Below, one piece after another: positions 5,536-59,790 of a DNA stretch of 64,000 nucleotides. The stretch comes from an uncultured Bacillales bacterium (GTDB lineage: Bacteria; Bacillota_I; Bacilli_A; RF39; UBA660). The notes under the pieces were generated by a model. That model did no database searches. It saw only the letters and a list, made by a program, of their open reading frames with translations, and had not been told where the DNA came from. Where the stretch lies: positions 5,708 through 69,707 of the forward strand of contig CATLHA010000003.1 of the NCBI GenBank assembly GCA_949948745.1, in the 5' to 3' direction. The translations under genes were made by a program, and so were the position numbers. Within the stretch, counting starts at the first letter, position 1. Each line of letters opens with the position of its first letter.

Positions 5536-5597
5536 AGATAGATGATATAGAAAAGAGAAAAGAAAAATATTATAATAGATATACTTTAAGGAGAAAA

Positions 5598-6020
5598 TAT
5601 GGAAAAATTTAAATATAACAAACAAGTTTCCTAAAAATCGTATCAGATTAGCTTTTGCCGGAATGGGAATGGTATTTCTATTAACAGGATATGGTTTTAG
5701 TGGAAGTCAAAATATAGAAAATGATGTAGAAGAAAGAACAGAAAATAATGGAGAAGCAAATGATACTCCTTCAGAAAAACCAACAAAGATAAGAGGAAAA
5801 AAATCAAAGAAGGAATTTTAGTAATCGGGGATGAAAAATTTTTAATTGAATATACTAGTTATGTTGAATATGTAAAATCTGATAAAATAAGTATCTAACT
5901 AGTAGATGGGACTTGGCTAGATACGACTTCAGATAATTTTTATATGTATGAAAAAGATTCAGAAACAATCAATAAAATTAAAGAATTAATCATTAAAGAA
6001 GAACACATTATTAAATAAAA
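5598..6020 (+). pseudogene. Decayed gene fragments (short ORF pieces in shifting frames)
   Basis: RBS+ATG at 5598 opens an 11-codon frame. Other frames continue as KNRIRLAFAGMGMVFLL...GEANDTPSEKPTK* and ...LVDGTWLDTTSDNFYMYEKDSETINKIKELIIKEEHIIK*. No single intact frame. Confidence 0.25.
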
Positions 6021-6116
6021 TAAAGTAAAATGGAATTAGAATTATGTCAAATGATTGTCTAATTTCTTTTTTTTTATTGTACTTTTTGTTATAATTGGTT
6101 AGGAGATGAAAATTGT

Positions 6117-8024: not shown

Positions 8025-8038
8025 AAAGAAGGAGTAGT

Positions 8039-8509
8039 ATGGCTAAAAAAGATGTGTTAGAAAAATATGTTAGAAAAAATAGCCTTCTTTTGTATAACAT
8101 CGCTGCAATAAGACCAAATTCAAGAAAAAATATATCTCTTGCAATAAGACAAGGGCGCCTAGATATTTTAGAAACTTATGTAACACAGGCACCTGAAAAA
8201 TATCAAACAGAAGCTAGATATACAAAAATCTCATGTCTTGATGAAATCATTTTAAAAGACTATCATAGATTTGAACATTTAAACAAAATTAGAAATGTCG
8301 TGAAATTCGATAAAATAGCAGATGAAATCGTTGGGGATCGCGAATATAAAAGAGCAATGCAACTCTATTATATGAAAGAATTATTAATGGTCTTAAAATT
8401 AAATCCAAAAGAGAATTGTTGGGTATATCTTTGGAAACAAAAAGAAAAGATTACAGAAAAAGTCATTCATCAAATCGATGAGTACTATATTAAAAAAATT
8501 ACGAGTTAG
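8039..8509 (+). CDS. Hypothetical protein (156 aa) inserted between parE and parC
   Basis: Intact ORF with RBS; no recognisable family. Confidence 0.35.
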   Translation: MAKKDVLEKYVRKNSLLLYNIAAIRPNSRKNISLAIRQGRLDILETYVTQAPEKYQTEARYTKISCLDEIILKDYHRFEHLNKIRNVVKFDKIADEIVGDREYKRAMQLYYMKELLMVLKLNPKENCWVYLWKQKEKITEKVIHQIDEYYIKKITS

Positions 8510-8520
8510 GATGTGGAAAC

Positions 8521-11091: not shown

Positions 11092-11108
11092 AAAAATCTC
11101 CTTTTTAT
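11083..11108 (+). terminator. Rho-independent terminator after parC
   Basis: GGAGATT-aaaaaa-ATCTCC hairpin overlapping stop codon, followed by TTTTTAT. Confidence 0.6.
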
Positions 11109-11162
11109 GTGTTCAATAGAAATAATGAAAAAAGTAACGCATAAGATAAAGTAGGTGATATT

Positions 11163-11546
11163 ATGTCTAAAGAAACCTTCAAGCAATTTGTTAGAACCAA
11201 TCCAGTTTTAGCAACTTTCGTAAATAGAGGCGAAGTAACTTGGCAAAGATTTTATGAAATGTATGATTTATATGGGGAAAACCATTCCATATGGAATGAA
11301 TATTTGAATCAAAATACAAAATCTGTAGTAAAAGAAGTAAGAGAAGATGCAGTAAAAGGAGCAACTACACTCGCAGATACCTCAATTAAAGATATTTTTA
11401 ATATGGTAAAATCCATGGATTTAGATACAGTAAAAAAAGGAGTAGATGGTCTTCAAAAGGCAGTAGGACTTCTTCAAGAATTTACTGGTACAAAAAAACA
11501 AGAACAATACCAAGCAAGACCACTGTATAAGCATTTAGAGGATTAA
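11163..11546 (+). CDS. YlbD-like small protein (putative coat/forespore protein family)
   Basis: 127 aa; position immediately upstream of YlbE-like, YlbF-like and rsmD genes mirrors Bacillus ylbD-ylbE-ylbF-ylbH synteny; weak sequence recognition. Confidence 0.3.
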   Translation: MSKETFKQFVRTNPVLATFVNRGEVTWQRFYEMYDLYGENHSIWNEYLNQNTKSVVKEVREDAVKGATTLADTSIKDIFNMVKSMDLDTVKKGVDGLQKAVGLLQEFTGTKKQEQYQARPLYKHLED

Positions 11547-11767
11547 TGGATATAAAAACACAAATAGAAATCAGAAAAAATCCCCATATTTACCATTACT
11601 TAAGAGAAAATAGTAGCTGGTATAAAATGCTAAATAGATACCCAGAATCAATAAAAGATTTAAATCAAGAAGCAAAAGACTACTTTCATCTAAATCCCAG
11701 CGACAAAATTGATGAAATTAGCAGGAAAGTAGAAATGGTACGTACATTTATGGATATGTTAAATTAA
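11546..11767 (+). CDS. YlbE-like protein
   Basis: 73 aa, motif KNPHIYHYLRENSSWYKMLNRYPESIKDL resembles YlbE family; start overlaps upstream stop (TAATG). Confidence 0.4.
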   Translation: MDIKTQIEIRKNPHIYHYLRENSSWYKMLNRYPESIKDLNQEAKDYFHLNPSDKIDEISRKVEMVRTFMDMLN

Positions 11768-11855
11768 TCAAAGAAGCATTTCGTTTCTTTTTTTCTGGTT
11801 AATTAATAGAAAGAAATAGTATACTATTAATAGAATATAGGAGTATACGTAGGTT

Positions 11856-12239
11856 ATGAAGAATATAAAAATAATTTTCAGTATAAGTTTAATAGTTATT
11901 GGTATGTGTTTAATTTCTAGCGGAATTCTTTTAATATATAAAAACGAGGAAAAGAAATCTGAAAATCAAAAAATATCTCATATTAATAAAGAAAACGGTT
12001 CTTTTCATTGTACTAGAGAAACATTTGAAATGCAAAATTATAAGATTGATTACCAATATGATTTTTCTTTTACGGACGGAAAAGTTAATAGGGCTTCTAC
12101 TCTTTATATTTATACATTTAAGACAAAAGAAAGCTATGAATTGTTTCACATTAATTTCTCTGATATTGGTCTTGAAACAGAGGAAGATTTTGATAACAAA
12201 AGCTTGACAAAAAAAATATACAACTCATGCAATTTTTGA
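11856..12239 (+). CDS. Hypothetical membrane-anchored protein (127 aa); frame may continue after a T5 slip to ~12312
   Basis: N-terminal TM helix; +1 frame downstream of stop continues EEYAEDVNQYLSYMQETGYVCEEK*. Confidence 0.35.
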   Translation: MKNIKIIFSISLIVIGMCLISSGILLIYKNEEKKSENQKISHINKENGSFHCTRETFEMQNYKIDYQYDFSFTDGKVNRASTLYIYTFKTKESYELFHINFSDIGLETEEDFDNKSLTKKIYNSCNF

Positions 12240-18791: not shown

Positions 18792-18886
18792 AATAAAAAA
18801 AGACTGCCAAAGCAGTCGCTCAAATAGAGTATTTAGGGTTAAACCTTTATTTTAACTCTCTATGTCATCTTAAATGGTATTAAGAC
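18792..18886 (-). ncRNA. tracrRNA: tracrRNA of the type II-A system (anti-repeat + nexus + terminator hairpin)
   Basis: Minus-strand transcript reads GUCUUAAUACCAUUUAAGAUGACAUAGAGAGUUAAAAU (complementary to the CRISPR repeat with a bulge). It is followed by AAGGUUUAACC nexus-like hairpin and GACUGC-UUUG-GCAGUC + U7 terminator. Confidence 0.65.
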
Positions 18887-18892
18887 AATTAC

Positions 18893-18922
18893 ATAATAGC
18901 ATGATATTAGGAGGTGTGTCAA
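18893..18922 (-). promoter_or_regulatory. Putative sigma-A promoter for tracrRNA (TTGACA-N18-TATTAT) embedded in the cas9 5' region
   Basis: Minus strand reads TTGACAcacctcctaatatcatgcTATTAT ending ~7 nt upstream of the anti-repeat. Confidence 0.45.
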
Positions 18923-21900
18923 TTGGAAAATAATAAAAAATATAATATCGGTCTAGACATAGGAACAACTTCCGTTGGATGGGCAGTAGTAGAATGTGAA
19001 AACCAAAAAATAATCAGAAAAGGAAATAAAGCTCTATGGGGAGTTCGATTATTTGAGGAAGCAAATACTGCAGCAGATAGAAGAAACAAACGAAGTACTA
19101 GAAGACGCTATGATAGAAGAAGAGAGAGAATAAGATTACTACAGGAAGAATTTAAAGAAGAAATTAATAAAATTGATTCTAATTTTTTTACAAAATTAAA
19201 AGAATCTTTTTATCATGAAGACGATAAAGAAAACAAAACTATTCCATTAACAAAAGAAGAGAAAGAGACAATCAAAGAATATAATAACAAATACAAAACG
19301 ATCTATCATTTAAGAAATAAGCTAATAAATTCTACAGAAAAAGAAGATATCAGATTAGTTTATCTAGCAATTCATCATATTATAAAATATCGAGGAAATT
19401 TTCTTTATAATAGTGATAACTTCAGTGTAGAAAATTTAAACTTAGAGACTCAAATAGAAACAATATTAAATTCAGCAATTAATTTTTGTCCATCTTTAGA
19501 ATGTCCGACAGACTATAAAGAATATATAAAAATTAATGATCTTTCTATAGCACTTTTGGATTCTTCTAAAAATGATCGAAAAGTAAAAGTTCAAAAAATA
19601 TTGGAATCAATTCTTCCTAAAATTTTTGTAAGTGAATTTATAAAACTAATAAATGGAAACAAATTCAATATTATAAAAATGATAGGATTAGAAAATATAG
19701 ATAAACTGGAAATTAGTTTTAATGGAACCGATTATGAAGAAAAATACAATGAACTTGAATCCATTCTTGGAGATTCCATTGAAGTACTTGATAGTATGAA
19801 ACAATTATATGATATGGTTTTTCTAAAAAGGTTATTTAAATCAAGTGAAAGCACAAATATTTCGGCCTTAATGGTTGAAAAATACGAATTACACAAAAAA
19901 GATTTAAAATTTTTAAAATCTATTTTAGATATTGATCGAAAAATTTATAATAAAATTTTTAAAAGTAGAAAAGAAATCTGTCCTTACGAAAATTACATAA
20001 AAAATAAAATAACTAATGAAGAATTCGTGAAGGAAATAAAAAAATATTTACCAAGTATTTTTGAAAAAAACATCAATCAAGAACTACTTACCTATTATGA
20101 AGCTAACATTCAAAAACGTATGGAGAATGGAGATTTTCTACCTCGAATTACTGATAAAGACAATGGAAAATACCCATATCAATTAAATAAAGAAGAATTA
20201 ATCAAAATTATTGAAAACCAAGGAAAATATTATCCATTCTTACTAGATAAAACAAAAGATGATACTTATAAACTTGTTAAATTATTAGAGTTTAGAATTC
20301 CATATTATGTTGGTCCATTGACAGAGGAAAGTCATAGTAAATTTGCTTGGATGATTCGAAAAAACTATAACGAAAAAATTACTCCTTATAATTTTGATGA
20401 CATAATCGATAAAGAAGCAACGGCAGAAAAATTTATAAAAAGAATGATTTCTCATTGTACTTATTTATTAGAAGAACCAGCAATGCCCAATAATTCTATT
20501 CTCTATTCAAAATATAAAGTAATGAATGAACTAAAGCAAATTAGAATCAACGGAAAAAAAATGTCATGCGATATGCAGAATAAAATTTTAAGAAATTTAT
20601 TTATGACTACAAGCGGGAATATCACAGATAAAAAATTTAAAGAATATTTATATGCTAATAAGGATTTTGATATGTATCAAGGTGACTTTAATATTACAGG
20701 ATATTCAGCAGATGGAAAATTTGCAAATACAATGCAATCCTATATAGATTTCTTCGGTGAAAATGGAATCTTTAGTAACACTAATTATACCTTAGAAGAG
20801 GCAGAACAAATTATTGAATGGATTACAATATTTGAAGATAAAGATATTTTAAAAACAAAAGTAGAAAGGGACTACCCATTACTTAATGATTCCCAAATTA
20901 AAAAAATTATTTCTAAAAAATATAGTGGTTGGGGAAGTTTATGTAAGAAATTATTAACAACTAAATACTATGTTGATAAGGAAAGTGGAGTTACAAAATC
21001 AATTATAGATTTAATGGAAGAGACAGAAAATAATTTCATGCAGATTATCAATGATGATACCTATAATTTTCAAAAGATGATTAAGGAAAATAATAAAATA
21101 GATGTAACTCAAAAATTAAATTATAGTGTAGTCGAATGCCTAGCAACTTCTCCCTCAACAAAGAGAGGTATCTATCAAGCCCTAAGGGTAGTCGATGAAA
21201 TCGTAAAATATATGAAAAAAGAGCCAGAGGCAATTATGGTAGAAATGGCTCGAGGTGATGATCAAAAGAAAAGAAAAGATGACCGTAAAAAATATTTAAT
21301 AAAACTATATGAAAAAGCCAAAGAAGAAATTGAGGATTACAATCAACTAATGCAACAACTAGGAAAATTTGAGAAAATTGATAGTCAAAAATTATTTCTT
21401 TATTTTATACAAGAAGGAAAAAGTTTATATTCTGGAAAACCACTGAATATTGAAGATTTAGCTACTTACGAAATTGATCATATTATTCCAAGAACTTTAA
21501 TTAAAGATGACTCAATTGATAATAAAGCTTTAGTATATAGAGAAGAAAATCAAACAAAGGCCGCTAACTATATTCTTCCCAGGGAATTCAGAAGCCAATT
21601 CAATAGAGCATGGTGGGAACATTTAAGGAAAATTGGGTTAATTTCATCTAAAAAGTTTCATAATCTAATTCGTTCTGAGTATAAAGAAGAAGAAATAGAA
21701 AACTTTATCAATCGTCAATTGGTAGAAACTAGACAAATAACCAAACATGTAGCAAATATTCTAAATAGCTATTACAAAAATACACAAGTTGTCTATTTAC
21801 ATGCTGATTTGTCACATAATTATCGAGAGAAATTCGAGTTATTTAAATTTAGAGATATAAATGATTATCATCATGCACATGATGCTTATTTGGCGGCAGT

Positions 21901-22957
21901 TTTAGGTGAATATAAAGAAAAGTATTTAAAATGTAAAGTTAATTTTGAGATGCTAAAAGAATTAAATAAAAGCTTAATTGAACAAAAAGATTATAAAAAG
22001 CTGAAATATGGATATGTAATTAATAGCTTAGATAGTTCTATGAATGATGTTATGAAAGAAGTTGTTTCTATTCACTTTGATGAAAAAACTGGAGAAGTAC
22101 TATTTGATGCAGAAGAGTTTAATAGAAGAGTAGAAGACACTTTATATCGAAATGATATTTTGATTAGTAGAAAACCAGAAATAAAAACAGGACAATTATA
22201 TAAGGAAACAATATATTCTCATAATGACGCAAAGATTAAGTCAGGAATTAAAATATCTAAAACGTTACCAGTAGAAAAATATGGTTTCTATACAAATATA
22301 GAATATTCTTATTTAGTATTGGTAAAAGTTAAAGAAAAAAACTATATGTTTGGTATTCCAATTATGTATGACAATAAAATTGATAAAGCAAAATATATTG
22401 AAGAAAAATTAAAAGTAAGCATTGATGATTATGAAATAATATGTGATAGGATTCCATTTTATACTAAAATTAATTATCATGGACATCTAGCTTATTTAAC
22501 AGGTAGTATTGAATTTTGGAATGCTTATCAGTTAAAGATATCAAAAAAATCTATGAAAAAATGGAAATACATGTTAAATTTTGCATTAAATGATAAGAAA
22601 ATCCCTGTTATTGATAACCAAGAAGTTTTAACTGAACAAGAAGTAAATAAACAAATGCTTGAATTTATTAAATACTTACTATCATTACATGAATTATTTC
22701 CTTTATATAATAATACTTTCAAGAAACTAGAAAAGATAGATATTGAAAATCTAGATATGGAAAAGAAAAAAATACTTATTAAAGAATTATTAAAAATGTT
22801 ATCAGCAAGCAGTATGAATGCTAATTTAAAAGAATTTGGACTTACTGATAGAGAAGGTAGAGTACATAAATCAAATATAGGAGAAGGTACGTTAATATAT
22901 AATTCAATTACTGGTATAAGAGAAAAAACAATTGTTATAGAAGGAAAAAGAAAATGA
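18923..22957 (+). CDS. cas9: Type II-A CRISPR endonuclease Cas9
   Basis: RuvC-I IGLDIGTTSVGWAVV, Arg-rich bridge helix, HNH EIDHIIPRTLIKDDSIDNKALV, RuvC-III DYHHAHDAYL; 1345-1347 aa. TTG 18923 (9 nt after AGGAGG) preferred over GTG 18914. Confidence 0.95.
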   Translation: MENNKKYNIGLDIGTTSVGWAVVECENQKIIRKGNKALWGVRLFEEANTAADRRNKRSTRRRYDRRRERIRLLQEEFKEEINKIDSNFFTKLKESFYHEDDKENKTIPLTKEEKETIKEYNNKYKTIYHLRNKLINSTEKEDIRLVYLAIHHIIKYRGNFLYNSDNFSVENLNLETQIETILNSAINFCPSLECPTDYKEYIKINDLSIALLDSSKNDRKVKVQKILESILPKIFVSEFIKLINGNKFNIIKMIGLENIDKLEISFNGTDYEEKYNELESILGDSIEVLDSMKQLYDMVFLKRLFKSSESTNISALMVEKYELHKKDLKFLKSILDIDRKIYNKIFKSRKEICPYENYIKNKITNEEFVKEIKKYLPSIFEKNINQELLTYYEANIQKRMENGDFLPRITDKDNGKYPYQLNKEELIKIIENQGKYYPFLLDKTKDDTYKLVKLLEFRIPYYVGPLTEESHSKFAWMIRKNYNEKITPYNFDDIIDKEATAEKFIKRMISHCTYLLEEPAMPNNSILYSKYKVMNELKQIRINGKKMSCDMQNKILRNLFMTTSGNITDKKFKEYLYANKDFDMYQGDFNITGYSADGKFANTMQSYIDFFGENGIFSNTNYTLEEAEQIIEWITIFEDKDILKTKVERDYPLLNDSQIKKIISKKYSGWGSLCKKLLTTKYYVDKESGVTKSIIDLMEETENNFMQIINDDTYNFQKMIKENNKIDVTQKLNYSVVECLATSPSTKRGIYQALRVVDEIVKYMKKEPEAIMVEMARGDDQKKRKDDRKKYLIKLYEKAKEEIEDYNQLMQQLGKFEKIDSQKLFLYFIQEGKSLYSGKPLNIEDLATYEIDHIIPRTLIKDDSIDNKALVYREENQTKAANYILPREFRSQFNRAWWEHLRKIGLISSKKFHNLIRSEYKEEEIENFINRQLVETRQITKHVANILNSYYKNTQVVYLHADLSHNYREKFELFKFRDINDYHHAHDAYLAAVLGEYKEKYLKCKVNFEMLKELNKSLIEQKDYKKLKYGYVINSLDSSMNDVMKEVVSIHFDEKTGEVLFDAEEFNRRVEDTLYRNDILISRKPEIKTGQLYKETIYSHNDAKIKSGIKISKTLPVEKYGFYTNIEYSYLVLVKVKEKNYMFGIPIMYDNKIDKAKYIEEKLKVSIDDYEIICDRIPFYTKINYHGHLAYLTGSIEFWNAYQLKISKKSMKKWKYMLNFALNDKKIPVIDNQEVLTEQEVNKQMLEFIKYLLSLHELFPLYNNTFKKLEKIDIENLDMEKKKILIKELLKMLSASSMNANLKEFGLTDREGRVHKSNIGEGTLIYNSITGIREKTIVIEGKRK

Positions 22958-23826
22958 GTTTTAGGACAGTTGTAGTTACAAAGCAATCTAAATTAAGCTA
23001 TAAGAATCGTTTTTTAGTAGTCAAGCAAGAAGGAGAAGAAAAATATATTCATTTATCAGAAATAGATACAATTATAGTAGATTCTATTTCAGTATCTATT
23101 TCTGCCTATTTATTAAAAGAATTATCAGATAATAAAATTAATATTATGTTCTGTGATGAAAAGCATAATCCATTTGGTGAATTATCTTCGTATTATTCTA
23201 GACATAACTCAAGTAAAAAAATAAAAATACAGATACAATGGAAGCAAAAAGAAAAAGATGAAATATGGAAAGAAATTGTAAAGAATAAGATTATGAATCA
23301 AGCTTTATTAATCAATAAAATATCATCAGAAAATTATGACTTGTTATTAAGTTATATTGATGAAGTTCTAATTGGTGATAAAAGCAATAGGGAAGGACAT
23401 GCTGCTAAGGTCTACTTTAATACGTTATTTGGAAAAAACTTTGTTAGAAATAATGACGATTCAATCAATGCTGCTTTAAATTATGGATATGCAATCCTTT
23501 TATCTACAATTAATAAGGAAGTAGTTGCAAATGGTTTTTTAACGCAGCTAGGAATTCATCACAAGAACGAATTTAATGAGTTTAATCTTACTTGTGATTT
23601 AATGGAGCCATTTCGAGTAGTCATAGATAATTTTGTTTATTATAATCAAAAACGAGAACTAAACACAGAATATAAATTAGATATTGTAAATATTCTTAAT
23701 GATACTTTTAAATATCAAAATAAATCATATATTCTAAAAGATATTATTAAGATGTATGTTAAAAATGTGTTGGATTCTGTAGGCAATGTTGAAAATTATA
23801 AAGGATTTATTTATTATGAGGGATAG
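22954..23826 (+). CDS. cas1: CRISPR-associated endonuclease Cas1 (type II)
   Basis: MSFRTVVV...IDTIIVDS N-terminus typical of II-A Cas1; start overlaps cas9 stop (ATGA). Confidence 0.9.
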   Translation: MSFRTVVVTKQSKLSYKNRFLVVKQEGEEKYIHLSEIDTIIVDSISVSISAYLLKELSDNKINIMFCDEKHNPFGELSSYYSRHNSSKKIKIQIQWKQKEKDEIWKEIVKNKIMNQALLINKISSENYDLLLSYIDEVLIGDKSNREGHAAKVYFNTLFGKNFVRNNDDSINAALNYGYAILLSTINKEVVANGFLTQLGIHHKNEFNEFNLTCDLMEPFRVVIDNFVYYNQKRELNTEYKLDIVNILNDTFKYQNKSYILKDIIKMYVKNVLDSVGNVENYKGFIYYEG

Positions 23827-24136
23827 AGTCATGAGAACAATGGTATTTTTTGATTTACCAAATATTTATGCTAAAGATAAAAGAAATTATATATTATTTA
23901 GAAAATTTCTGTTAAATGAAGGTTTTATTATGATGCAAGAATCTGTATACTCTAAAATGATACTTAATTCACAACAATCTAATTTATTGATTGATCGAAT
24001 TAGAAAAAAAGCACCAAAAAAAGGATTAATTCAAGTGTTGACCATTACCGAAAAACAATATTCGCAGATTGAATATGTTATTGGACAAAAGGATAGTAAA
24101 ATTATAGATAGTGAGGATAGATTAATAGTCTTATGA
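23816..24136 (+). CDS. cas2: CRISPR-associated endoribonuclease Cas2
   Basis: MRTMVFFDLP...KFLLNEGFIMMQESVYSKM closely resembles streptococcal II-A Cas2; exact start (23816 or 23831) uncertain. Confidence 0.85.
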   Translation: MRDRVMRTMVFFDLPNIYAKDKRNYILFRKFLLNEGFIMMQESVYSKMILNSQQSNLLIDRIRKKAPKKGLIQVLTITEKQYSQIEYVIGQKDSKIIDSEDRLIVL

Positions 24137-24819
24137 AAATGAGTATTAGATATATTGATAATGAAATTTTAATAGAGCAGGGGAGTGTTACAGTAGTAGA
24201 GATTGAAAACAAATCATACTTTTATAATGTGATTAGTGAATTATATTCATTTATGAATGGAGAAGTAGTAGATACTATTAAGTTTTTTGACAATTCATCA
24301 AAGGAAATAATGATGACTGGGAAAATTGAAATACTTTTAAACTTTTTTAACCTCCAGTTTGATTCTAAGAAATATATAAGTGAATTAACAAAGCGTATTT
24401 CTAATGAAGTTACAGAAGAGCAAAGAGATGAAATAATAAAAATTTTTAAGAGATTACAGTCAATTTATAAAAAAATGCTTAATAACATTGATTTACCTTT
24501 ATCAATAAATTCTGATATAAATATAGATTCTATTAGTAAAATACTGAAAATAGAAATTAAAACAAAAAATAGTTTATTAGAGAATCTTTTGACAATAATT
24601 GACTTAGAAAGGGAATTAAAACTCCACAAATTATTATATTTTGTTAATTTAAAGCAATATTTACACATAGATGAACTAAAAGAGTTATATAAATACGCAA
24701 TATATAATCAAATAAATATAGTTTTAATTGATTCACAAAGTTATGGAACAACCCTTGAATATGAAAGAAAATTAATTATAGATAACAATTTGGATGAATT
24801 TATGTTAGAATATAAGTGA
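24133..24819 (+). CDS. csn2: Csn2 (short form), type II-A signature protein
   Basis: 228 aa, position after cas2 and before leader/array; start overlaps cas2 stop (ATGA). Confidence 0.8.
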   Translation: MKMSIRYIDNEILIEQGSVTVVEIENKSYFYNVISELYSFMNGEVVDTIKFFDNSSKEIMMTGKIEILLNFFNLQFDSKKYISELTKRISNEVTEEQRDEIIKIFKRLQSIYKKMLNNIDLPLSINSDINIDSISKILKIEIKTKNSLLENLLTIIDLERELKLHKLLYFVNLKQYLHIDELKELYKYAIYNQINIVLIDSQSYGTTLEYERKLIIDNNLDEFMLEYK

Positions 24820-24889
24820 TGACAAATGATTTTCTATTTAAGATGCATAGTTTTCTCTAGAACTATGAATAGATTTAAATCAATTTGAG

Positions 24890-25875
24890 GTTTTAGATCT
24901 ATGTCATCTTAAATGGTATTAAAACACGACAATGATCCTCACATTTCTAAATTAGTTTTAGATCTATGTCATCTTAAATGGTATTAAAACATTTAATGAA
25001 TTCATCAAATCTGACTCTTCGTTTTAGATCTATGTCATCTTAAATGGTATTAAAACTTAATACACTAGTTTCTAAACATATAGGCAGTTTTAGATCTATG
25101 TCATCTTAAATGGTATTAAAACAAAGATCCTGCAGAAATTGATAAAACATATGTTTTAGATCTATGTCATCTTAAATGGTATTAAAACTAATTATTTAAA
25201 TGTTGATTATGTTTCTAAGTTTTAGATCTATGTCATCTTAAATGGTATTAAAACAGCATTTAAAGGTGAAATTTCATATGATAAGTTTTAGATCTATGTC
25301 ATCTTAAATGGTATTAAAACAGATAATAGAGGAATTATATAACTTGTTGAGTTTTAGATCTATGTCATCTTAAATGGTATTAAAACAAAAATAAATAATT
25401 AGTTTTAAACATATCTGTTTTAGATCTATGTCATCTTAAATGGTATTAAAACAAGTGCGGTTGCTAATCCTTCCATAATAGTGTTTTAGATCTATGTCAT
25501 CTTAAATGGTATTAAAACAGATATAAATGAAAACTCTATTGCTTTAACGTTTTAGATCTATGTCATCTTAAATGGTATTAAAACATACTCTATGATATCA
25601 GATTGACTTTCAATGTTTTAGATCTATGTCATCTTAAATGGTATTAAAACTACTGGTATTTTTTTAGAAGATTATCAAAAGTTTTAGATCTATGTCATAA
25701 TTGTATTAAAACATTTTGAAGAAGTTTATAAATTAACAATTTAAATGGTATTAAAACTGCAAAGTGGATATACATATTATGTGCTTTGTTTTAGATTTAT
25801 GTCATCTTAAATGGTATTAAAATAAAAGTAACAACAAAAGTACCTGAATTAAAGTTTTAAATCTATGTCAGCTAG
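24890..25875 (+). CRISPR. CRISPR1 array: 36-bp repeat GTTTTAGATCTATGTCATCTTAAATGGTATTAAAAC, 12 intact units with 30-nt spacers then decayed distal units
   Basis: Repeats start at 24890, 24955, 25021, 25087, 25153, 25219, 25285, 25351, 25417, 25483, 25549, 25615. Internally deleted repeat at 25681-25712, 17-nt half repeat at 25741-25757, mutated repeats at 25789-25824 and 25855-25871. 70-nt leader 24820-24889. Confidence 0.95.
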
Positions 25876-25953
25876 GAATGATAACAAAAAAAAGTTTATC
25901 ATTCTTTATTTTTGTGATAAACTTAAAGTAAGAATAGAATAGGGTGTGTTGTA

Positions 25954-28353
25954 ATGAATAATACATTAAATGATATAGAATTACTTTACACAGAATGTGT
26001 GAAAGATATTAAATCATTATTTGAAAGTGATAGATATATCAGTAAAAAAGATTATCAGAAGATTATTGATCAATATAAAGAGATATTTGATAACATTCAT
26101 CAATTTGACTATGACAATTCTAAAAAAGAATCACTAATAAAGCTTTCTAATGAAATAGATAACTATATATCCAAACACAATGAAAAATTTATTAACCAAA
26201 AGTTAGTAGAATATAAAGATTACTTTGATACTATATTTAAAGATATTGACCCAGAAATTGTACTCGATGAAGAGCAGAGAAAGGCAATTTTAATTGACGA
26301 AGATTACTCTCTAGTAATTGCAGGAGCAGGAAGTGGTAAAACAACTACAATGACTGCCAAAGTAAAATACCTGATAGAAAAATGTCATATTGCACCATCT
26401 GAAATTGCAATTCTTTCCTTTACAAAAAAAGCTGTAGAAGAATTAGATAATCGTATTAATAATGATTTTAAATTAAACATTAAGGTTAAAACATTCCATA
26501 AATTGGGATTAGAAATATTAAATGATAGGCTAAATTATTCAGTAAGAGCTATAGAGGAATCAGGAAAAAGAAAGATAATAAGCGAATATTTTAAACAAAG
26601 AATCTTTCCAAGTAGAGCTAAATTATCATTTGTAATGGATATCTTTAGCAAATACCTATTTTTAGACCCAGAATGTCTAAAATTTGGAACGTTTGACGAG
26701 TATTGGAGTTATTATACTAAAAAGAAATATATAGAAGAAAAAGACCGTTTAAATGAATATAATGATTTTGAAGTAAATAAACGTCTATCTATCAATAGAT
26801 CTATTCAAAATGAATTTTTAAGATCAAAACATGAAACAACAATTGCTAACTTTTTATATACGAATAATATTCAGTATAAATATGAACAAAAATATACAGA
26901 ATCAGAAAATAGAATTAATTATAATCCAGACTTTACAGTGTATACTCCAAATGGAAAAGTATATATAGAATTTTATGGATTATCCAAATACTTTCAATAT
27001 GGTCATTACTCTAAAGAAGAAATATTAGCGTATAACAATCTTGAAAGAAAAAAGAAAGAATTACATCAAAGATATGGTACAGATTTAATAGAACTATATC
27101 CTGATGATGATTTATCAACGACAAACTATTTAAAGACATTAAAAGAAGAATTAGAAAAAAGAAATATTTTTTGTAATCAAAGAAGCAATAAAGAAATTTT
27201 CTTAAAGTTAATGGAAACTAACAAAGACTCTCAAATCTATAAATTTATCGAATTAATCATTCAATTTATAAGTAAATTTAAAAGTAATAGTTACACAGAC
27301 GAAGATTTTATAACATTAGAAAAGAATACAGAACATACCATAGTAAAACAGCAATTAGGTATAATAAGAGAAATATACCATTATTACAATAATTATATAC
27401 ATAATCAATACCTAGTAGATTTTGAAGATATGATTAATTATGCTTATCGATATATGAGTGAAACTCCAATAAAAAACAGTGAATTAAATTATAAATATGT
27501 AATTGTAGACGAATATCAAGATATTTCTTATCAAAGATTTAATTTACTTCAAAAAATATCTGATGTATTTGATGCTAAAATTATTGGAGTAGGGGATGAT
27601 TGGCAAGCTATCTTTGGATTTAGTGGAGCAGATATTAAATTATTTACAGACTTTTGTGAATTAATGGGATATGGCGAAATCATAAAGATTACTAATACAT
27701 ATAGAAATAGTCAAGAACTAATCGATGTAGCAGGAGAATTTGTATTAAAAAATTCAAACCAATTTGAAAAACATTTGCAATCTCCAAAACATTTAAAAAA
27801 TCCAATTGAGATTATATATTATAATCATAAAGAAAAATTATCTATATCAGAAACTTTAGAAGCATTGTTAGAACAACTTTACAAAGAAAACTCTAAACAA
27901 TCTATCTTATTATTAGGAAGATATAATAATGATATAGAAAGAATACTAAAAAATTCTAAGTTCAAAGAAGGAATCAAATCTAATAATGAAATTAAATATA
28001 CACCACATAGAGATATGAATATAAAATTTCTAACAGTACATTCAGCCAAAGGTTTAGGCTTTGATCAAGTAATTTTAATCAATGCTCTAGATGGAACTTA
28101 TGGATTTCCAAGCAAAATAAAAGATGATGAAATTATAAGCATTTTAAGCAGTGATTTTGAAGAAAATATTGCATACGCTGAAGAGAGAAGATTGTTCTAT
28201 GTAGCAATTACAAGAACAAAAAATAAATTATTTATATTGGCTCCAAAGCATAAAATATCTACTTTTATTACTGAAATTAGAGAATATGATAATGTCATTG
28301 AAAAAGATATAAATATCAAACAAGCAAAAAAGAGCGAACTTGAAGTTATATAG
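25954..28353 (+). CDS. UvrD/Rep-family (SF1) DNA helicase with a ~200-aa insertion containing a nuclease-like segment
   Basis: Walker A AGAGSGKTTT at aa 124, DExQ VIVDEYQD at aa 515, C-terminal motifs TVHSAKGLGFD and RRLFYVAITR. Inserted segment has PDF...IEFYG resembling PD-(D/E)xK or Vsr-like cores. Confidence 0.75.
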   Translation: MNNTLNDIELLYTECVKDIKSLFESDRYISKKDYQKIIDQYKEIFDNIHQFDYDNSKKESLIKLSNEIDNYISKHNEKFINQKLVEYKDYFDTIFKDIDPEIVLDEEQRKAILIDEDYSLVIAGAGSGKTTTMTAKVKYLIEKCHIAPSEIAILSFTKKAVEELDNRINNDFKLNIKVKTFHKLGLEILNDRLNYSVRAIEESGKRKIISEYFKQRIFPSRAKLSFVMDIFSKYLFLDPECLKFGTFDEYWSYYTKKKYIEEKDRLNEYNDFEVNKRLSINRSIQNEFLRSKHETTIANFLYTNNIQYKYEQKYTESENRINYNPDFTVYTPNGKVYIEFYGLSKYFQYGHYSKEEILAYNNLERKKKELHQRYGTDLIELYPDDDLSTTNYLKTLKEELEKRNIFCNQRSNKEIFLKLMETNKDSQIYKFIELIIQFISKFKSNSYTDEDFITLEKNTEHTIVKQQLGIIREIYHYYNNYIHNQYLVDFEDMINYAYRYMSETPIKNSELNYKYVIVDEYQDISYQRFNLLQKISDVFDAKIIGVGDDWQAIFGFSGADIKLFTDFCELMGYGEIIKITNTYRNSQELIDVAGEFVLKNSNQFEKHLQSPKHLKNPIEIIYYNHKEKLSISETLEALLEQLYKENSKQSILLLGRYNNDIERILKNSKFKEGIKSNNEIKYTPHRDMNIKFLTVHSAKGLGFDQVILINALDGTYGFPSKIKDDEIISILSSDFEENIAYAEERRLFYVAITRTKNKLFILAPKHKISTFITEIREYDNVIEKDINIKQAKKSELEVI

Positions 28354-29215
28354 ATAAGAATAGAGTGGGGGGAAGTTCTTCTTCTCCCTACTATCTATAA
28401 CTTTAAATAATAAAAGGAGGAAAACGTTAATGTATTACTATATAGAGCTTATGTATGATAATTTTAGATGCTATCGTTCCTATGGAATAATCATTGCATC
28501 TAATAAAATCAAAGAAAAAGAATTGTATCATGTGAACAAATATAACAGTATTATTATGCCAATTACAAAAACAGTTTTAGAAGAAATAAGCTTAATGGAA
28601 AAAGATAAATTAGTGATGTTTTATCGCTATTTTTTATTTCGCATAATATATATTATGTTAACTTCTTTATATATAAATATCTTTCTAACTACTTTCTTAT
28701 TACTTTTTTATAGTCATTTCATTGCGATTTAAAGCTTTATAACGAAATAATATATCAACTATTTTAAAATCTTATAAATACTTTTTTGATAATGAATCAT
28801 ATTATATATAGCTAATAATTAATATAATAATTTTGATATTTAAAATTAAAATCTAATTTTAGACTTATATCATTTTTCATATTTAAAACCCATTTTCAAA
28901 TTGGAATCGAGTTTATGTTATATGAACAATTATATTAGTCAATGACAAATAGAATTTAGCGGCATCTTTCATAATTGGAATCGAGAATAACATTAGATGG
29001 ATAATTATCCATTCAAGGAAGATTCAAATATTAAAATTTAATTCGAGTGCACAATTACCCACCTTTATAAACTCTCGATTCCTCTCAATTCATTAATTCA
29101 TAAATGTTACTCCCTACTCCCTTAAATAAAAAAATTAAAGGATAGGGGAAGTGATTATTTTTATCTAGTATAAGAAAGATAATCAAGGAAAGACTAATAA
29201 ATAGGAGGTATAAGT

Positions 29216-29389
29216 ATGGGTAAGAAAAATGATCAAAAAATAAAATGTCATGTAGAGTCTTGTAAATATCAAGATTGTTGTGATCATTGTTGCACATTAA
29301 AAGAAATTGAAGTAAGTTGTACTTGTGGTTCAAATGATGCTACAGACAAAAAAGAAACAATTTGCAAAAGTTTTAAATGTTGTGAATAA
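29216..29389 (+). CDS. DUF1540-like cysteine-rich small protein (57 aa; absent from ORF track because <60 aa)
   Basis: AGGAGG 8 nt upstream of ATG; two repeats of the Cys pattern KCHVESCKYQDCCDHCCTLKEIEV / CTCGSNDATDKKETICKSFKCC. Confidence 0.55.
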   Translation: MGKKNDQKIKCHVESCKYQDCCDHCCTLKEIEVSCTCGSNDATDKKETICKSFKCCE

Positions 29390-29411
29390 GAAAAGAAGGG
29401 GAAATAAAGAA

Positions 29412-29879
29412 TTACTCCCCTTCTCTTTTTGTCTTTTTTTGTTTCATGAGCTCTTTCAATAATTTTTGACATCCATTATATATATCGTTATATGCCTTTT
29501 CAAAATTCCTTGTATACCAGGGATCATCAATATCATAGTTTGGAATCAATTTTCTAATCTTTTTCGAATCATCATTTCCAACAATATATAATAAATTTCT
29601 AATATTACTATCTTCCATTACAATAATATAATCATAAAAATCATAATCTTCTTTTCTAAAAACTTGTGCATCGTGTGAAAAATAAAGAATTCCCTTCTCT
29701 TCTAATTTCTTTTTGGCAAGTGGATAAATAGGATTACCAAGTTCTTCAGTACTTGTAGCTTTTGAATCAATAAAAAATTCTTCCTTGATTTCACTTTCAA
29801 AAACTAATTCCTTCATAATAGCTTCAGCCATAGGACTTCTACAAATATTTCCCAAACAAACAAAGATTATTTTAATCAT
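29412..29879 (-). CDS. Low-molecular-weight protein-tyrosine phosphatase
   Basis: P-loop signature CLGNICRSPMAEA at N-terminus; 155 aa. Confidence 0.85.
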   Translation of the reverse strand: MIKIIFVCLGNICRSPMAEAIMKELVFESEIKEEFFIDSKATSTEELGNPIYPLAKKKLEEKGILYFSHDAQVFRKEDYDFYDYIIVMEDSNIRNLLYIVGNDDSKKIRKLIPNYDIDDPWYTRNFEKAYNDIYNGCQKLLKELMKQKKTKREGE

Positions 29880-51325: not shown

Positions 51326-51700
51326 GCTTATCACATCCTAACAAGTTTATTTTAAACAATATACTTTTTTTATTTCTAATCTTTGTAATTAGTTGATCAA
51401 GTTCCAATTTGCTAACTTTACAAATTCTTACAAATATATCTTTCTCTACACAAACAATATCATGATATTCTCCGGGTAAACAAACATTAGAGGTAGTATC
51501 AACAGAATTTACGCAAAGTGTTCCTACAAGAAGTTTATATTGTTCAACAATTATTAATATGTTAATGTGATTTAATCTAACTGTACTATTTCTATCTAAT
51601 ACATAAGTATATTTATAGTCGACTCCTCGATAACATTTAATATTATTTTTATATTTAATTGATTATCATAGAAATCTTTAAATTTAATATATTCAACATA

Positions 51701-52132
51701 AACTTAGTAATATTTAAGATGACATAAATCTAAAACCACGTTCTTTTTTAGTACCCAATATTGCTAGTTTTAATACCATTTAAGATGACATAGATCTAAA
51801 ACTGAATATATAATCACTTATGATATAACAGAGTTTCAATACCATTTAAGATGACATAGATCTAAAACTCAGAAAAAATATAATTAGAATTAATATAAGT
51901 TTCAATACCATTTAAGATGACATAGATCTAAAACATCAAATTGGAATCGATGACAGGTATGTATGTTTCAATACCATTTAAGATGACATAGATCTAAAAC
52001 GTTGTAGTCTCCTGTTTCAAAGCTCCATCAGTTTCAATACCATTTAAGATGACATAGATCTAAAACCCTGTGTATTGTTCGTACACAAAATTTTCTGTTT
52101 CAATACCATTTAAGATGACATAGATCTAAAAC
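51701..52132 (-). CRISPR. CRISPR2: orphan array in inverted orientation, same 36-bp repeat with one SNP (...TATTGAAAC), 6 spacers
   Basis: Plus strand shows the reverse-complement repeat GTTTCAATACCATTTAAGATGACATAGATCTAAAAC at 51833, 51899, 51965, 52031, 52097. The 51767 repeat has the CRISPR1 allele, and a degenerate terminal unit lies at 51701-51736. Leader-homologous sequence sits at 52133-52206. Confidence 0.9.
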
Positions 52133-52231
52133 CTCAAATGTTATTTAAATCTAGTTTGATAGTTCATAGAGAAAACTATTATCTTAAATGGAAAATCATA
52201 TGTCACTAACTTTATTTTAGCACAAATTCGT

Positions 52232-52348
52232 CTAAATTTCATCAATGATTAACTTTTTTTTATAATTCAAAGTAGTTCCATAACATTGTGAATCAACTAA
52301 GACTATATTTACTTGATTATATATTGCATGTTTATATAGCTCTATTAA
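52232..52348 (-). pseudogene. csn2: csn2 3'-terminal remnant (last ~38 codons) adjacent to the CRISPR2 leader
   Basis: Minus-strand frame translates LIELYKHAIYNQVNIVLVDSQCYGTTLNYKKKLIIDEI*, against intact Csn2 C-terminus LKELYKYAIYNQINIVLIDSQSYGTTLEYERKLIIDNN; frame opens directly after a TGA. Confidence 0.7.
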
Positions 52349-52539
52349 TCAGGTAATATATCATAATTACTTGCTTGAATTTGTTCTTTAATAAAATCTA
52401 AGTTTTTCATAAAATATACCTCTTTTCTGAAAACTTGGGCATACTATATCATAAATTTAGAACCTTGTTCACGAAAACAATATATAGAGGACAACAGAAA
52501 ATATTTATTACTTTCTAACTTGATACTTGCTTCGTCAAT

Positions 52540-53756
52540 CTATAAATCAGATATCTTCTGTTTAATTTTCTCACCATGCAACGCTGTAACATCTTCGTGA
52601 TGTTGCTGTAAATAATTTTTTAATGCAAAAATAATTTCTTCTGCTGTTATATTTTCTAAATTAGCTTCTAATCGGTATTGAATTAGTTGCTCAATAAAAT
52701 CTCTAACATAATCAAAGTCTCCAAAATCCACTTGACAATAAAATTCACCATCATCAAAATGATAAAAAGTAATATTTCGACTATCTCGAAGGCAACCAAA
52801 TTCCCTTGATAATAAAAATGCATTTCCTGTCGAAATTAACTCACAAATTACTTCATCACATAAAGTTTTAGAATCTAGGTAATTAGAAAGAATAAGATCA
52901 CTACCAATAATTCTAACTTTAGTAGTAACATCTTCTTCCCAAGAATCCATTACTCCATGAACTACTCTTTTAGAAAAATATTGAAGAGTTCTAGAAGAAT
53001 ATTTTTCCCCTTCATAAACAGAGATTAGTTTACTAATAATATCACTAATAACTACAGAATCAAAAGAAGAATATTGGTGAAGTAATAATATGAACTCGGC
53101 TAATTTTTTCTTTAATAAATCAGTTTCCGTTTTATTTTCAGATAACTGTGTAGAATAAGAAGAAATAATCTTCTTCTTTGCTTCTTCTAATTCTCTACTC
53201 CTATTGTTTAAAATATCTTCTTTTTCTTCTAAAGAAGACTGAATTTTTTCTTGTTGTTTTGAAATCAAAGTAAATAAAGATTCTTGTTCTTCTCGAATTT
53301 CTTCATTTATCGAAGATACCATATCATCCTTCTTTTCTTCTGTTTTTTCTTCTTTCTCCTTTAAAATACCGACTGGTAATTGTAAATCACTCACACTACC
53401 ATCATAATGTAAAGTACCACAACAAATCTTTAATTCCCAAACTTTTTGTCTTTTTTCTTTTATCAAATAAATAGTAGACTCATAACATGGTGCACCACAC
53501 AATCCACTATAACCATTATGTTGGTGATTGTGCCAACGATTAATTTCAATCTCAACAAGATCTCCATCTATATTCATAAATTGTACTTTTCCATTTTCAT
53601 TATAAAATTTTTTTCTACTTCCCAACCAACATTTTCATATAAATGATGTTGTTCTTTATTATAGTAACAATTAGCCCCATTTTGATGTTCTAAAACAATC
53701 TTTTTTACTTTCTCATATAATAATGTCCCTGTTTCTTTTTCAATTTCTATCATAAT
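52540..53756 (-). CDS. Hypothetical protein, apparently split by a frameshift at an A7 run (53608-53614). A 45-codon N-terminal frame (53756 start) is followed by the 361-aa ORF
   Basis: ATG 53756 frame MIEIEKETGTLLYEKVKKIVLEHQNGANCYYNKEQHHLYENVGWEVEK... stops 15 codons after the A7 run. The ORF-track 361-aa frame begins within it, and one extra A would fuse both. Confidence 0.4.
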
Positions 53757-54752: not shown

Positions 54753-55460
54753 TCATTTAATATAACCTTTATACTTTAAATAAGCACATAACTCTGGACA
54801 AATATTATTTAAATCTATTTTAGTATTTTCTAAACAATAATTAAAAATATCCCTAAGATTAGAACTACTATTTTTTAAATAGCAAACTTTTATTTTATCA
54901 CTGTTAATCTTATGATCAGTGAAAGTATGCATATTCCACTTATCCATTATGGTGGTATCTAAATTCGAATATTTTTCAGAATAACCGCATATCTCTAAAT
55001 GTTTCTTTATATAACCTCGAGACTTTATTTCATCCTCATCATCGCAACTAAAATCTACATTCTCCTCTAATTCCAACTTTAAGAGAATTCCGTTATTTAG
55101 AATTTTATCAAGACTTCTAAATGCTCTTTTTTGATGCAGTTTACTTACTTTTAAAATTTTAAAATAACTATTACCTATCATATTAGGAAACCATTTATGT
55201 CTTAAGAAGAAAGCACCTAGTTTATAGATAAATGGAATTACAGGCACCTAATATAATGCATTAATCCAACAATCAAATAAGATCAATAGGTTATCCAAGC
55301 CCTCTACAAAAAATATTTTTCTAGTTTTTTCTATATTTTTAGCATGACTTCCAATATTTGGAATCAATCCTTTAGATTGAATTGATTCTAAATTTTTTCT
55401 ATCTGTAAAATGAAAATAATTAGAATTTAAACTTTCATCATTCAATATATACTTTCTCAT
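54753..55460 (-). pseudogene. Gene interrupted by an in-frame TAG (70-aa + 164-aa ORFs in the same frame). N-terminus resembles DarT/DUF4433-type toxins, tentative
   Basis: ORFs 55248..55460 and 54753..55247 are contiguous in one frame separated only by TAG at 55248-55250. N-terminal motif YFHFTDRKNLESIQSKGLIP. Confidence 0.4.
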
Positions 55461-55565: not shown

Positions 55566-55650
55566 TGGTGCGGGTAACAGGAGTTGAACCTGCAAGCCTT
55601 GCGGCGCTAGATCCTAAGTCTAGTGCGTCTGCCAATTCCGCCATACCCGC
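55566..55650 (-). tRNA. tRNA-Leu (anticodon UAG)
   Basis: Minus-strand cloverleaf GCGGGTA...TACCCGCACCA, anticodon loop CUUAGGA, long variable arm, encoded CCA. Confidence 0.85.
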
Positions 55651-55656
55651 ATTTAG

Positions 55657-55733
55657 TGGTGGACCCTGATGGACTCGAACCATCGACCGTTCGGTTATGA
55701 GCCGAATGCTCTAACCAACTGAGCTAAGGGTCC
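55657..55733 (-). tRNA. tRNA-Met (anticodon CAU, elongator-type; could be lysidine-modified Ile2)
   Basis: Minus-strand GGACCCTTAGCTCAGTTGGTTAGAGC...anticodon loop CUCAUAA...GGTTCGAGTCC...AGGGTCCACCA, 77 nt with CCA, paired 1:72. Confidence 0.8.
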
Positions 55734-59524: not shown

Positions 59525-59790
59525 TCCTCTTCCTTTCTTTTTCTGCTAAAAAATAAAAAGGTAACACTACAAAGGACGAATTTTACTTCGTGGTGCCACC
59601 TTATTTTCATAATTTCTTATGCTTAAAATCTTTAACGCAGAATTACGTTTCTTTTAATAGAAAGTGTCTTCATTAACTCCTAATCGATATTTTCACCAAC
59701 CATATCTTCTCTAAAATTAGGAATATTAATTACTCTTCTTTCCAAGAATCTATTATTATTTTACAACATTTTTTTATAAAATTCAAGAAA
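59525..59790 (-). promoter_or_regulatory. T-box riboswitch leader of the hisS-aspS operon
   Basis: Minus strand contains T-box sequence AAUAAGGUGGCACCACGAAG whose 5' half can pair with downstream CUUUGUAGUGUUACC + U-run (terminator/antiterminator alternative). AGAGA-containing stem I region upstream. Confidence 0.55.

Follow-up and report, generated by a model that had tools for sequence, protein, structure and literature searches.

An isolated type II-A CRISPR array with a csn2 stub in an uncultured Bacillales bacterium, probably served in trans by a cas locus 26 kb away

CRISPR arrays that lack cas genes are common, and their origins are usually guessed. Among the closest described systems is the orphan CRISPR2 of Enterococcus faecalis, i.e., a cas-less type II-A array whose repeats are of the CRISPR1 type and whose defence requires the cas9 of CRISPR1 to be supplied (PMC4894674; PMC4580645). 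Another one is the isolated type I-F array CR3 of Pseudomonas aeruginosa, which is active in acquisition and whose origin has been discussed in terms of both duplication and transfer between lineages, i.e., horizontal transfer (PMC13142298). For Group 1 type II-A systems, where the junction of leader and repeat reads ATTTGAG/GTTT, the last 10 nucleotides (nt) of the leader plus one repeat are reported to be sufficient for adaptation, even at a non-CRISPR locus (PMC5382924; PMC4330368). Here, we study a cas-less array, also denoted CRISPR2, in a stretch of 64,000 nt from an uncultured Bacillales bacterium (contig CATLHA010000003.1, positions 5,708 to 69,707; the window in the following). We consider it probable (roughly 0.7) that this CRISPR2 is an isolated type II-A array that is served in trans by the cas locus 26 kb off and whose module stems from a diverged II-A locus. 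In the terminology of PMC13142298, it is 'isolated' rather than 'orphan'.

The array, its upstream region and the resident type II-A locus consist of the following features, where the trans-activating CRISPR RNA is abbreviated as tracrRNA.

51701-52132, minus strand: CRISPR2 array, with 7 repeats that enclose 6 spacers of 30 nt each
52133-52206, minus strand: CRISPR2 leader, 74 nt, with ATTTGAG end, promoter-like site and motif CATTTAAGAT
52207-52348, minus strand: csn2 3' stub, 142 nt, Csn2 residues 182 to end
18914-24819, plus strand: cas operon, the only one in the window, with cas9 (18914-22957), cas1 (22954-23826), cas2 (23786-24136) and csn2 (24133-24819)
24820-25889, plus strand: CRISPR1, with leader (24820-24889, 70 nt) and array (24890-25889)
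18795-18895 (ends approximate), minus strand: putative tracrRNA, with anti-repeat (reverse complement of 18851-18886) and hairpin plus T-run terminator (18825-18796)

The cas genes were identified with NCBIfam. An earlier note on this DNA had described CRISPR2 as an inverted array of 7 repeats at a distance of 26 kb from the cas genes, and it is present as such on the minus strand, 26 kb from the only cas9 locus of the window. The five repeats nearest to the leader (within 51833-52132, the leader-proximal one at 52097-52132) read GTTTTAGATCTATGTCATCTTAAATGGTATTGAAAC and carry A31G relative to the CRISPR1 repeat. The sixth repeat (51767-51802) is identical to the CRISPR1 repeat, while the terminal seventh one (51701-51736) is degenerate. 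That is, one CRISPR2 repeat shows 36/36 and five show 35/36 identical positions. The same locus with the same flanks is found in at least 7 independent assemblies (NCBI, JGI, ENA, Logan), and this recurrence rules out an assembly artefact as source of CRISPR2. Both the gene spacing and the two arrays of the window are identical in contig CASTSA010000003.1 of GCA_949451585.1.

Besides the csn2 stub, the window contains no further cas fragment outside of 18.6-25.9 kb, and cas genes are absent within 10 kb of CRISPR2 in the 6 strains checked. The cognate cas locus is present in every conspecific assembly that covers its site. When allowing for up to 8 mismatches, the only copy of the anti-repeat is the one at 18851-18886, i.e., no second tracrRNA was found near CRISPR2.

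We compared the arrays between strains, where loci from other assemblies are denoted by L numbers and proteins by P numbers. The six-spacer allele of CRISPR2 is shared by the window, L001, L002, L004 and L005. For L006, CRISPR2 consists of 2 spacers, which are the oldest two of the six-spacer allele; L003 has 9 spacers, among which only the trailer spacer is common with the others, and L007 shows yet another leader-proximal spacer. The trailer spacer TAGCAATATTGGGTACTAAAAAAGAACGTG is part of all CRISPR2 alleles that are read through to the trailer end. In total, four CRISPR2 alleles are distinguished by their spacers on the leader side and have the trailer spacer in common, while their flanks are identical among conspecifics. 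The same polarised pattern is observed for CRISPR1 across strains, and CRISPR1 and CRISPR2 have zero spacers in common.

New CRISPR units copy the leader-proximal repeat. In CRISPR2, A31G is confined to the five newest repeats, with the oldest intact repeat being the CRISPR1 repeat. Since only the newer units carry the variant, they were added at CRISPR2 itself, after its separation from any A31 source. Both the polarised spacer differences and the propagated A31G variant strongly support that CRISPR2 acquires spacers in trans, as the earlier note had suggested. Within the CRISPR2 array of L003 (7727-7894), the three oldest intact repeats show T9C and A31, and the six newer ones T9 and G31. 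One-step copying of the first repeat cannot yield this pattern; instead, it suggests that the leader end has recombined, either among arrays or among strains.

In L011, L014 and L015, a Rep_OBD/Zot element is matched by two CRISPR2 spacers, namely s35 (3 mismatches, 3' flank TGG) and s34 (4 mismatches, 3' flank CGG). A rough estimate for the occurrence of two NGG flanks by chance in a genome of 27% GC is 3e-4. Spacer s41 of L003 matches the same site in a diverged variant, and CRISPR1 spacer s30 shows a weaker match with a CGG flank. Exact IMG/VR scans with the 20 nt proximal to the protospacer adjacent motif (PAM) of three CRISPR2 spacers provided 0 matches, and comparing all 15 CRISPR2 spacers with the INPHARED phages yielded only a chance match of 22 nt.

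The element itself is an inovirus-like Rep_OBD plus Zot-like element of about 5.1 kb (L011 14798-19882; also in L014 and L015), whose site corresponds to window position ~28666. In some conspecific strains it sits exactly at dif, flanked by dif and a partial dif copy, i.e., it resembles an integrative mobile element exploiting Xer (IMEX). The window strain is without the element and has two CRISPR2 spacers against it. The near-consensus dif site TTTCGCATAATATATATTATGTTAACT of the window is located at 28639-28666, where both GC skew and gene orientation switch (context 28000-29500; the skew changes its sign near 28-29 kb). This position is the replication terminus. CRISPR1 ends 2.7 kb left of dif and CRISPR2 is found 23 kb right of it, such that the arrays are on opposite replichores, each co-oriented with replication.

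The similarity of CRISPR2 to the resident locus is not restricted to the repeats. When these are left out, the reverse complement of 52133-52347 aligns to 24677-24889 with 83% identity over 219 columns (E=4.8e-53), while the next-best match within the window reaches E=0.001 only. The similarity of the two array flanks, which the earlier note had judged by eye, is thus both significant and unique in the window. The leaders agree in 60/70 positions (85.7%) plus 5 gap columns, which is in accordance with the about 85% reported before. Within the CRISPR2 leader, ATTTGAG (52139-52133) directly adjoins repeat 1 (...AACATTTGAG followed by GTTTTAG). It further contains the promoter-like element GTGACA-17-GATAAT at 52206-52178 as well as the conserved leader motif CATTTAAGAT. 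With the intact junction and these promoter-like elements, its description as a functional-looking leader is well justified.

For either repeat variant, a duplex of 25 bp with the tracrRNA candidate is predicted (-36.2 and -36.3 kcal/mol), where A31G merely turns an A:U into a G:U pair. Rfam reports no tracrRNA or CRISPR family at gathering score.

CRISPR1 comprises 12 perfect repeats of 36 nt followed by an irregular degenerate trailer (25651-25889). The latter is composed of an internally deleted repeat (25681-25712), an isolated repeat tail of 18 nt, a repeat with C10T and C36T (25788-25823) and a degenerate last repeat (25854-25889). It is conserved in all strains with fully assembled CRISPR1. 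The C10T variant is also found in the terminal repeat of CRISPR2.

Upstream of the CRISPR2 leader, 113/142 nt of the csn2 stub are identical to the resident csn2 (79.6%). On the minus strand, a TGA is followed by an open reading frame (ORF) of 38 codons, LIELYKHAIYNQVNIVLVDSQCYGTTLNYKKKLIIDEI and stop (52348-52235), with 28/38 residues identical to Csn2 residues 182-219 (tblastn: 78% over 36 amino acids (aa), E=2e-13). A 1-nt deletion shifts the frame such that the final LDEFVLK and stop (52235-52212) are encoded in another one. The earlier note had described the stub as the last 38 codons of Csn2 right after a TGA. Here, the TGA and the Csn2 identity hold, while the 38 codons are not strictly the last ones, given the frameshift.

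The stub stops one codon after Leu, whereas the resident Csn2 goes on as LEYK before its stop. The LK end of the stub is shared by L022, P0004, P0005 and much of the family. The read-through to LEYK or LEYR is derived and common to the resident csn2 and L021. L003 and the window have the very same stub and leader (100% identity).

An extended -10 element of the form TGnTAnAAT overlaps the csn2 stop codon in 7/8 clade loci examined, whatever the C-terminal residues. These are CRISPR1, CRISPR2, L021, L022, L035, L037 and L039, i.e., both cas-less arrays (CRISPR2 and L037, see below) are included; the eighth locus, L036, provides the near-match TTGTATAAT. For CRISPR1, the element reads TGTTAGAAT (24803-24811) and is placed inside of the csn2 end, just upstream of the leader. 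For CRISPR2, it reads TGCTAAAAT (52222-52214) and is accompanied by a -35-like ATGAAA at 52242-52237. Both elements differ only at the two degenerate positions. The retention of the seven specified bases in CRISPR2 has a chance probability of about 0.2 and is not significant alone. The position of TGnTAnAAT over the csn2 stop is an observation of this analysis; we found no description of it in the literature consulted on II-A leaders.

Given this recurrence, the promoter of the CRISPR RNA precursor is likely located in the last codons of csn2. With such a promoter, an autonomously transcribed array would necessarily carry a csn2 stub, and the overlap with the stop codon may explain why the stub of CRISPR2 was retained.

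A second cas-less array is found in L037 (1120-1384). When compared to the reverse strand of L035 (1095-1362), its leader is 85-90% identical and its repeats are identical. Of csn2, L037 retains no more than the final 30 nt or so, from the -35 position onward, and its array is located downstream of an unrelated long ORF; the Csn2 of the species is 46% identical. L037 and the cas-linked L035 are from the same sample and show similar coverage. A metagenome scan with the repeat pattern provided 6 loci, while the scan with the CRISPR2-specific leader pattern resulted in 0 matches.

Two further loci show arrays in unusual context. On the reverse strand of L038 (1175-1492), an array with the same perfect repeat and no leader directly adjoins an ORF. 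At its end, a truncated repeat runs into unrelated sequence, such that it could be either a further displaced piece of an array or a chimera of the assembly. L040 (4238-4537) and L039 (1922-9171) both belong to one other species of the clade (coordinates for the reverse-complement, array-oriented strand; on the stored strand about 7072-7371 and 4636-11885, respectively). Relative to L039, L040 shows a precise deletion of cas9-cas1-cas2-csn2 plus leader, while flanks, trailer spacer and terminal repeat are identical. Its junction is a hybrid of tracrRNA anti-repeat and CRISPR repeat (...TTAAAAC instead of ...TTAAGAC). Here, the cas genes were lost by recombination of anti-repeat and repeat, which is a different route to a cas-less array.

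CRISPR2 is flanked by the parts of a small gene, in the following geneX.

52349-52471, minus strand: geneX 5' end, with promoter-like TGAACA-17-TATAGT (52471-52443), ribosome-binding site, ATG at 52410 and 21 codons (MKNLDFIKEQIQASNYDILPD)
51627-51700, minus strand: filler of unassigned origin, 74 nt in place of geneX codons 22-40
51347-51626, minus strand: geneX 3' part, codons about 41-140, pseudogene

A profile from the geneX pieces retrieved two proteins of 140 aa, P0241 and P0242. The 21 codons agree with the N-terminus of both at 81%, and the downstream fragment corresponds to their residues 41-140. Since the same proteins match both flanking pieces, CRISPR2 is inserted in geneX. The 3' part has no start codon and shows a +1 and a second 1-nt indel as well as a 33-nt deletion; it is 50% identical on the aa level to the intact geneX protein P0242 (E=2e-25). 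Based on a weak sub-threshold Pfam match, geneX may be cupin-like. The left junction is sharp, i.e., geneX ...CCTGA (ending at 52349) is directly followed by T(52348)TAATAGAG of csn2, such that the stub abuts geneX codon 21.

In related species, the site is empty. L034 encodes a homologue of p361, followed by an intact geneX and an ATP-grasp gene. L033 shows the intact geneX followed by the ATP-grasp gene, and in L031 the geneX 3' end is directly followed by the ATP-grasp gene. Neither an array nor a cas gene is found at the geneX site of these three relatives. That is, the truncated structure of 7 conspecific assemblies is opposed to the empty site in 3 loci of related species. The earlier note had considered a full second cas operon at this site in related genomes as an indication of deletion; the comparison provides no such operon and an intact geneX instead. 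A contig scan with the ATP-grasp protein retrieved only distant species (<=58% identity), without synteny or arrays. P0125 (66% ATP-grasp identity) was considered for the site comparison and rejected since it is not syntenic. The hypothetical gene next to CRISPR2 (window 52540-53753) encodes 345 plus 59 aa in most strains and a single ORF of 404 aa in L003.

For transcription, processing, interference and origin of CRISPR2, we infer the following course from the sequences. A module composed of a csn2 3' end (the final ~142 nt), the 74-nt leader and repeats would have entered geneX by illegitimate recombination. There, it would have replaced about 57 nt of the gene, on the other side of the replication terminus from the cas locus. 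The module may have come from a related lineage in truncated form, or via a complete second locus that lost its cas genes. Cas1, Cas2, Csn2 and Cas9 of the resident locus would recognise the intact junction of ATTTGAG and repeat and insert spacers next to the leader. The extended -10 element that overlaps the old csn2 stop would drive transcription, possibly supplemented by read-through from the captured geneX promoter. Finally, the tracrRNA would pair with the CRISPR2 repeats for processing by RNase III and Cas9.

The origin of the module can be studied via its csn2 stub. Over 44 codons, we find 13 synonymous and 12 non-synonymous changes between stub and resident csn2. This results in a synonymous divergence (dS) of 0.89, a non-synonymous divergence (dN) of 0.12 and a dN/dS of 0.14, which is in the range of functional orthologues (0.15 for CRISPR1-L021, 0.12 for CRISPR1-L022 and 0.14 for L021-L022). 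Differences per codon position are distributed 12/2/11 (chi-square p=0.026), i.e., second positions are nearly unchanged. If the stub were a pseudogene since copying, a dN/dS of about 0.57 would be expected (binomial p=0.013 against; p=0.0002 against full neutrality). We conclude from these values that the stub was part of a diverged csn2 that stayed functional until shortly before its truncation.

This bears on the origin proposed in the earlier note, namely a segmental duplication of csn2 3' end, leader and repeats. Under this model, the unit would have been copied within the genome from CRISPR1, pasted inverted 26 kb away and left to neutral decay. Such a simple copy needs one event only and explains why the homology spans exactly these three parts; the extension of the homology past the repeats into leader and csn2 3' end, as claimed with it, stands (215 nt, E=5e-53). 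It also fits the site being empty in relatives, the oldest intact CRISPR2 repeat being the CRISPR1 repeat, and the C10T of the terminal CRISPR2 repeat, which recurs in the last but one repeat of CRISPR1 (25788-25823). Furthermore, the isolated I-F array CR3 of P. aeruginosa was interpreted likewise (PMC13142298). On the other hand, the low dN/dS is not what neutral decay predicts, and the csn2 dS of about 0.9 exceeds the host gene dS to the nearest empty-site relative L033 (0.22-0.46; ATP-grasp dS to L034: 0.61). The csn2 divergence thus looks older than the insertion. CRISPR1 is also nearer to the locus of another species (84.5% for L021, whose Csn2 is 70% identical) than to CRISPR2 (81.6%), and in terms of protein, several foreign Csn2 resemble the stub to about the same degree as the resident one does, or more so. 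In addition, the stub shows the ancestral stop position, and the arrays have no spacers in common. The repeat identity is silent on recency, because the identical repeat is found in species with a Csn2 that is only 41-55% identical (L036, L039); a foreign array would for the same reason work with the resident machinery at once. A copy of the resident CRISPR1 is therefore disfavoured and, in our view, unlikely, while an origin of the module from a diverged II-A locus is most likely given these sequence comparisons.

A diverged origin leaves room for a complete second II-A locus (tracrRNA, cas9, cas1, cas2, csn2, leader, array) that was inserted into geneX, functional for a time, and later reduced by a deletion with its ends at geneX codon 22 and at about codon 181 of csn2. 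We consider this somewhat less probable still than the copy from CRISPR1. It would account for the purifying-selection signature within the stub and for the loss of geneX codons 22-40, with the 74-nt filler being the trailer flank of the inserted DNA. The loss of redundant cas genes is expected, and cas-operon loss does occur within the clade (L040 vs. L039). Two events are required, however, and none of the assemblies, whether from this species or from relatives, has cas genes in this place. Stub (one frameshift) and geneX (two 1-nt indels, one deletion, dN/dS 0.29) are similarly lightly decayed, which fits a simultaneous inactivation. Moreover, L037 also has a short csn2 stub (about 30 nt), which is unlikely if deletion ends were random within a 6-kb operon. 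For these reasons, i.e., no genome with cas genes at the site, the similar decay and the second short stub, we prefer the import of a truncated module by one event of illegitimate recombination, which may have happened as outlined above. CRISPR2 as a dead fossil, with strain differences arising only via spacer loss and recombination, is very improbable. The two-spacer allele of L006 could indeed derive from the six-spacer allele by deletion, and CRISPR2 turnover seems slower than that of CRISPR1, since strains with identical CRISPR2 have different CRISPR1. But 8 spacers of L003 and 1 of L007 are found in no other allele, all of them nearer to the leader than the shared trailer spacer, and A31G is limited to newer units. 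Leader-end motif, promoter motif and tracrRNA complementarity are all intact, and stub and leader are without any difference between strains that have different arrays.

Several observations weigh against an active array from a diverged locus. Only two protospacer matches are secure, and with 3-4 mismatches they are imperfect; the spacer differences between strains could partly result from deletions or recombination rather than from acquisition. The dN/dS test covers 44 codons with 25 differences, and synonymous sites are near saturation; the dS has a rough 95% range of 0.4-2.4, whose lower bound overlaps the host divergence. Parsimony-informative sites of four taxa split 5/7/3, such that the position of CRISPR2 is ambiguous. 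A donor-like csn2 was not found when comparing the 38-aa stub with 1.84 billion cluster representatives, where the best matches show 80-83% aa identity over about 40 residues. The best one, P0243 (83%), is overall only 49% identical to the resident Csn2; the Csn2 C-terminus is conserved across the whole family and hence too conserved to diagnose the donor. Finally, comparing the 74-nt filler at the right junction with geneX codons 22-54, the repeat, the trailers of CRISPR1 and L022 and all fetched loci revealed no significant similarity.

Some further features of the window are listed for completeness. A gene of 235 aa next to LysR (window 54753-55460) is split into 164 plus 70 aa in the window, L001, L002, L004 and L009 and intact in L003, L005-L008 and L010. 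The tRNA-Leu and tRNA-Met at 55566-55733 as well as the T-box leader (Rfam RF00230) at 59569-59749, upstream of a hisS/aspS pair, are ordinary features.

The CRISPR2 insertion can be reconstructed almost to the base pair, given the broken host gene, the empty site in relatives and a stub with a selection signature. This makes CRISPR2 a test case for how immune memory spreads apart from cas genes, i.e., via within-genome copying, horizontal import or loss of cas genes. A candidate for a minimal autonomous II-A unit is given by the putative promoter in the 3' end of csn2, the leader of 74 nt and a single repeat. More speculatively, the module of csn2 stub, leader and array might be a self-sufficient, horizontally exchangeable cassette of immune memory that is captured repeatedly by illegitimate recombination and run at once by the resident cas genes; CRISPR2 and L037 would then be two independent captures. 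We put this forward tentatively, and rather doubt it than not. It is motivated by the 36-nt repeat and the ATTTGAG junction, which are invariant while the Cas proteins diverge to 40-60% identity, and by the putative promoter in the last csn2 codons. With regard to annotation, arrays like CRISPR2 are to be called isolated and active rather than orphan remnants.

We finally relate CRISPR2 to the systems introduced above. As in E. faecalis CRISPR2, we find a cas-less II-A array at a fixed chromosomal site, whose repeats match those of a cas-linked CRISPR1, with cas9 located elsewhere. Both have the inferred PAM NGG, and in both spacers vary by strain while terminal spacers are shared. Here, in contrast to E. 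faecalis, the cas locus is present in every covering conspecific assembly and only 26 kb away. Furthermore, the insertion site, the empty site in relatives and the csn2 stub are visible, which renders the origin reconstructable. The organism differs too, since it is an uncultured low-GC Bacillota known from sequence alone, i.e., from a metagenome-assembled genome.

With CR3 of P. aeruginosa, our array shares being isolated, being active in spacer acquisition, having a leader that resembles the one of the cas-adjacent array, and having almost no spacers in common with the latter. CR3, however, is of type I-F and its leader differs by 3 bp only, while CRISPR2 is of type II-A with a leader difference of 14% plus indels. 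CR3 is also without a cas-gene stub that would enable a selection test, and it is associated with mobile elements, none of which are seen next to CRISPR2. The Group 1 II-A junction is found in both arrays of the window, i.e., the leader end ATTTGAG is placed directly before GTTTTAG. While the respective studies (PMC5382924; PMC4330368) analysed cas-linked arrays only, CRISPR2 presents this junction in an array that is isolated from its cas genes.

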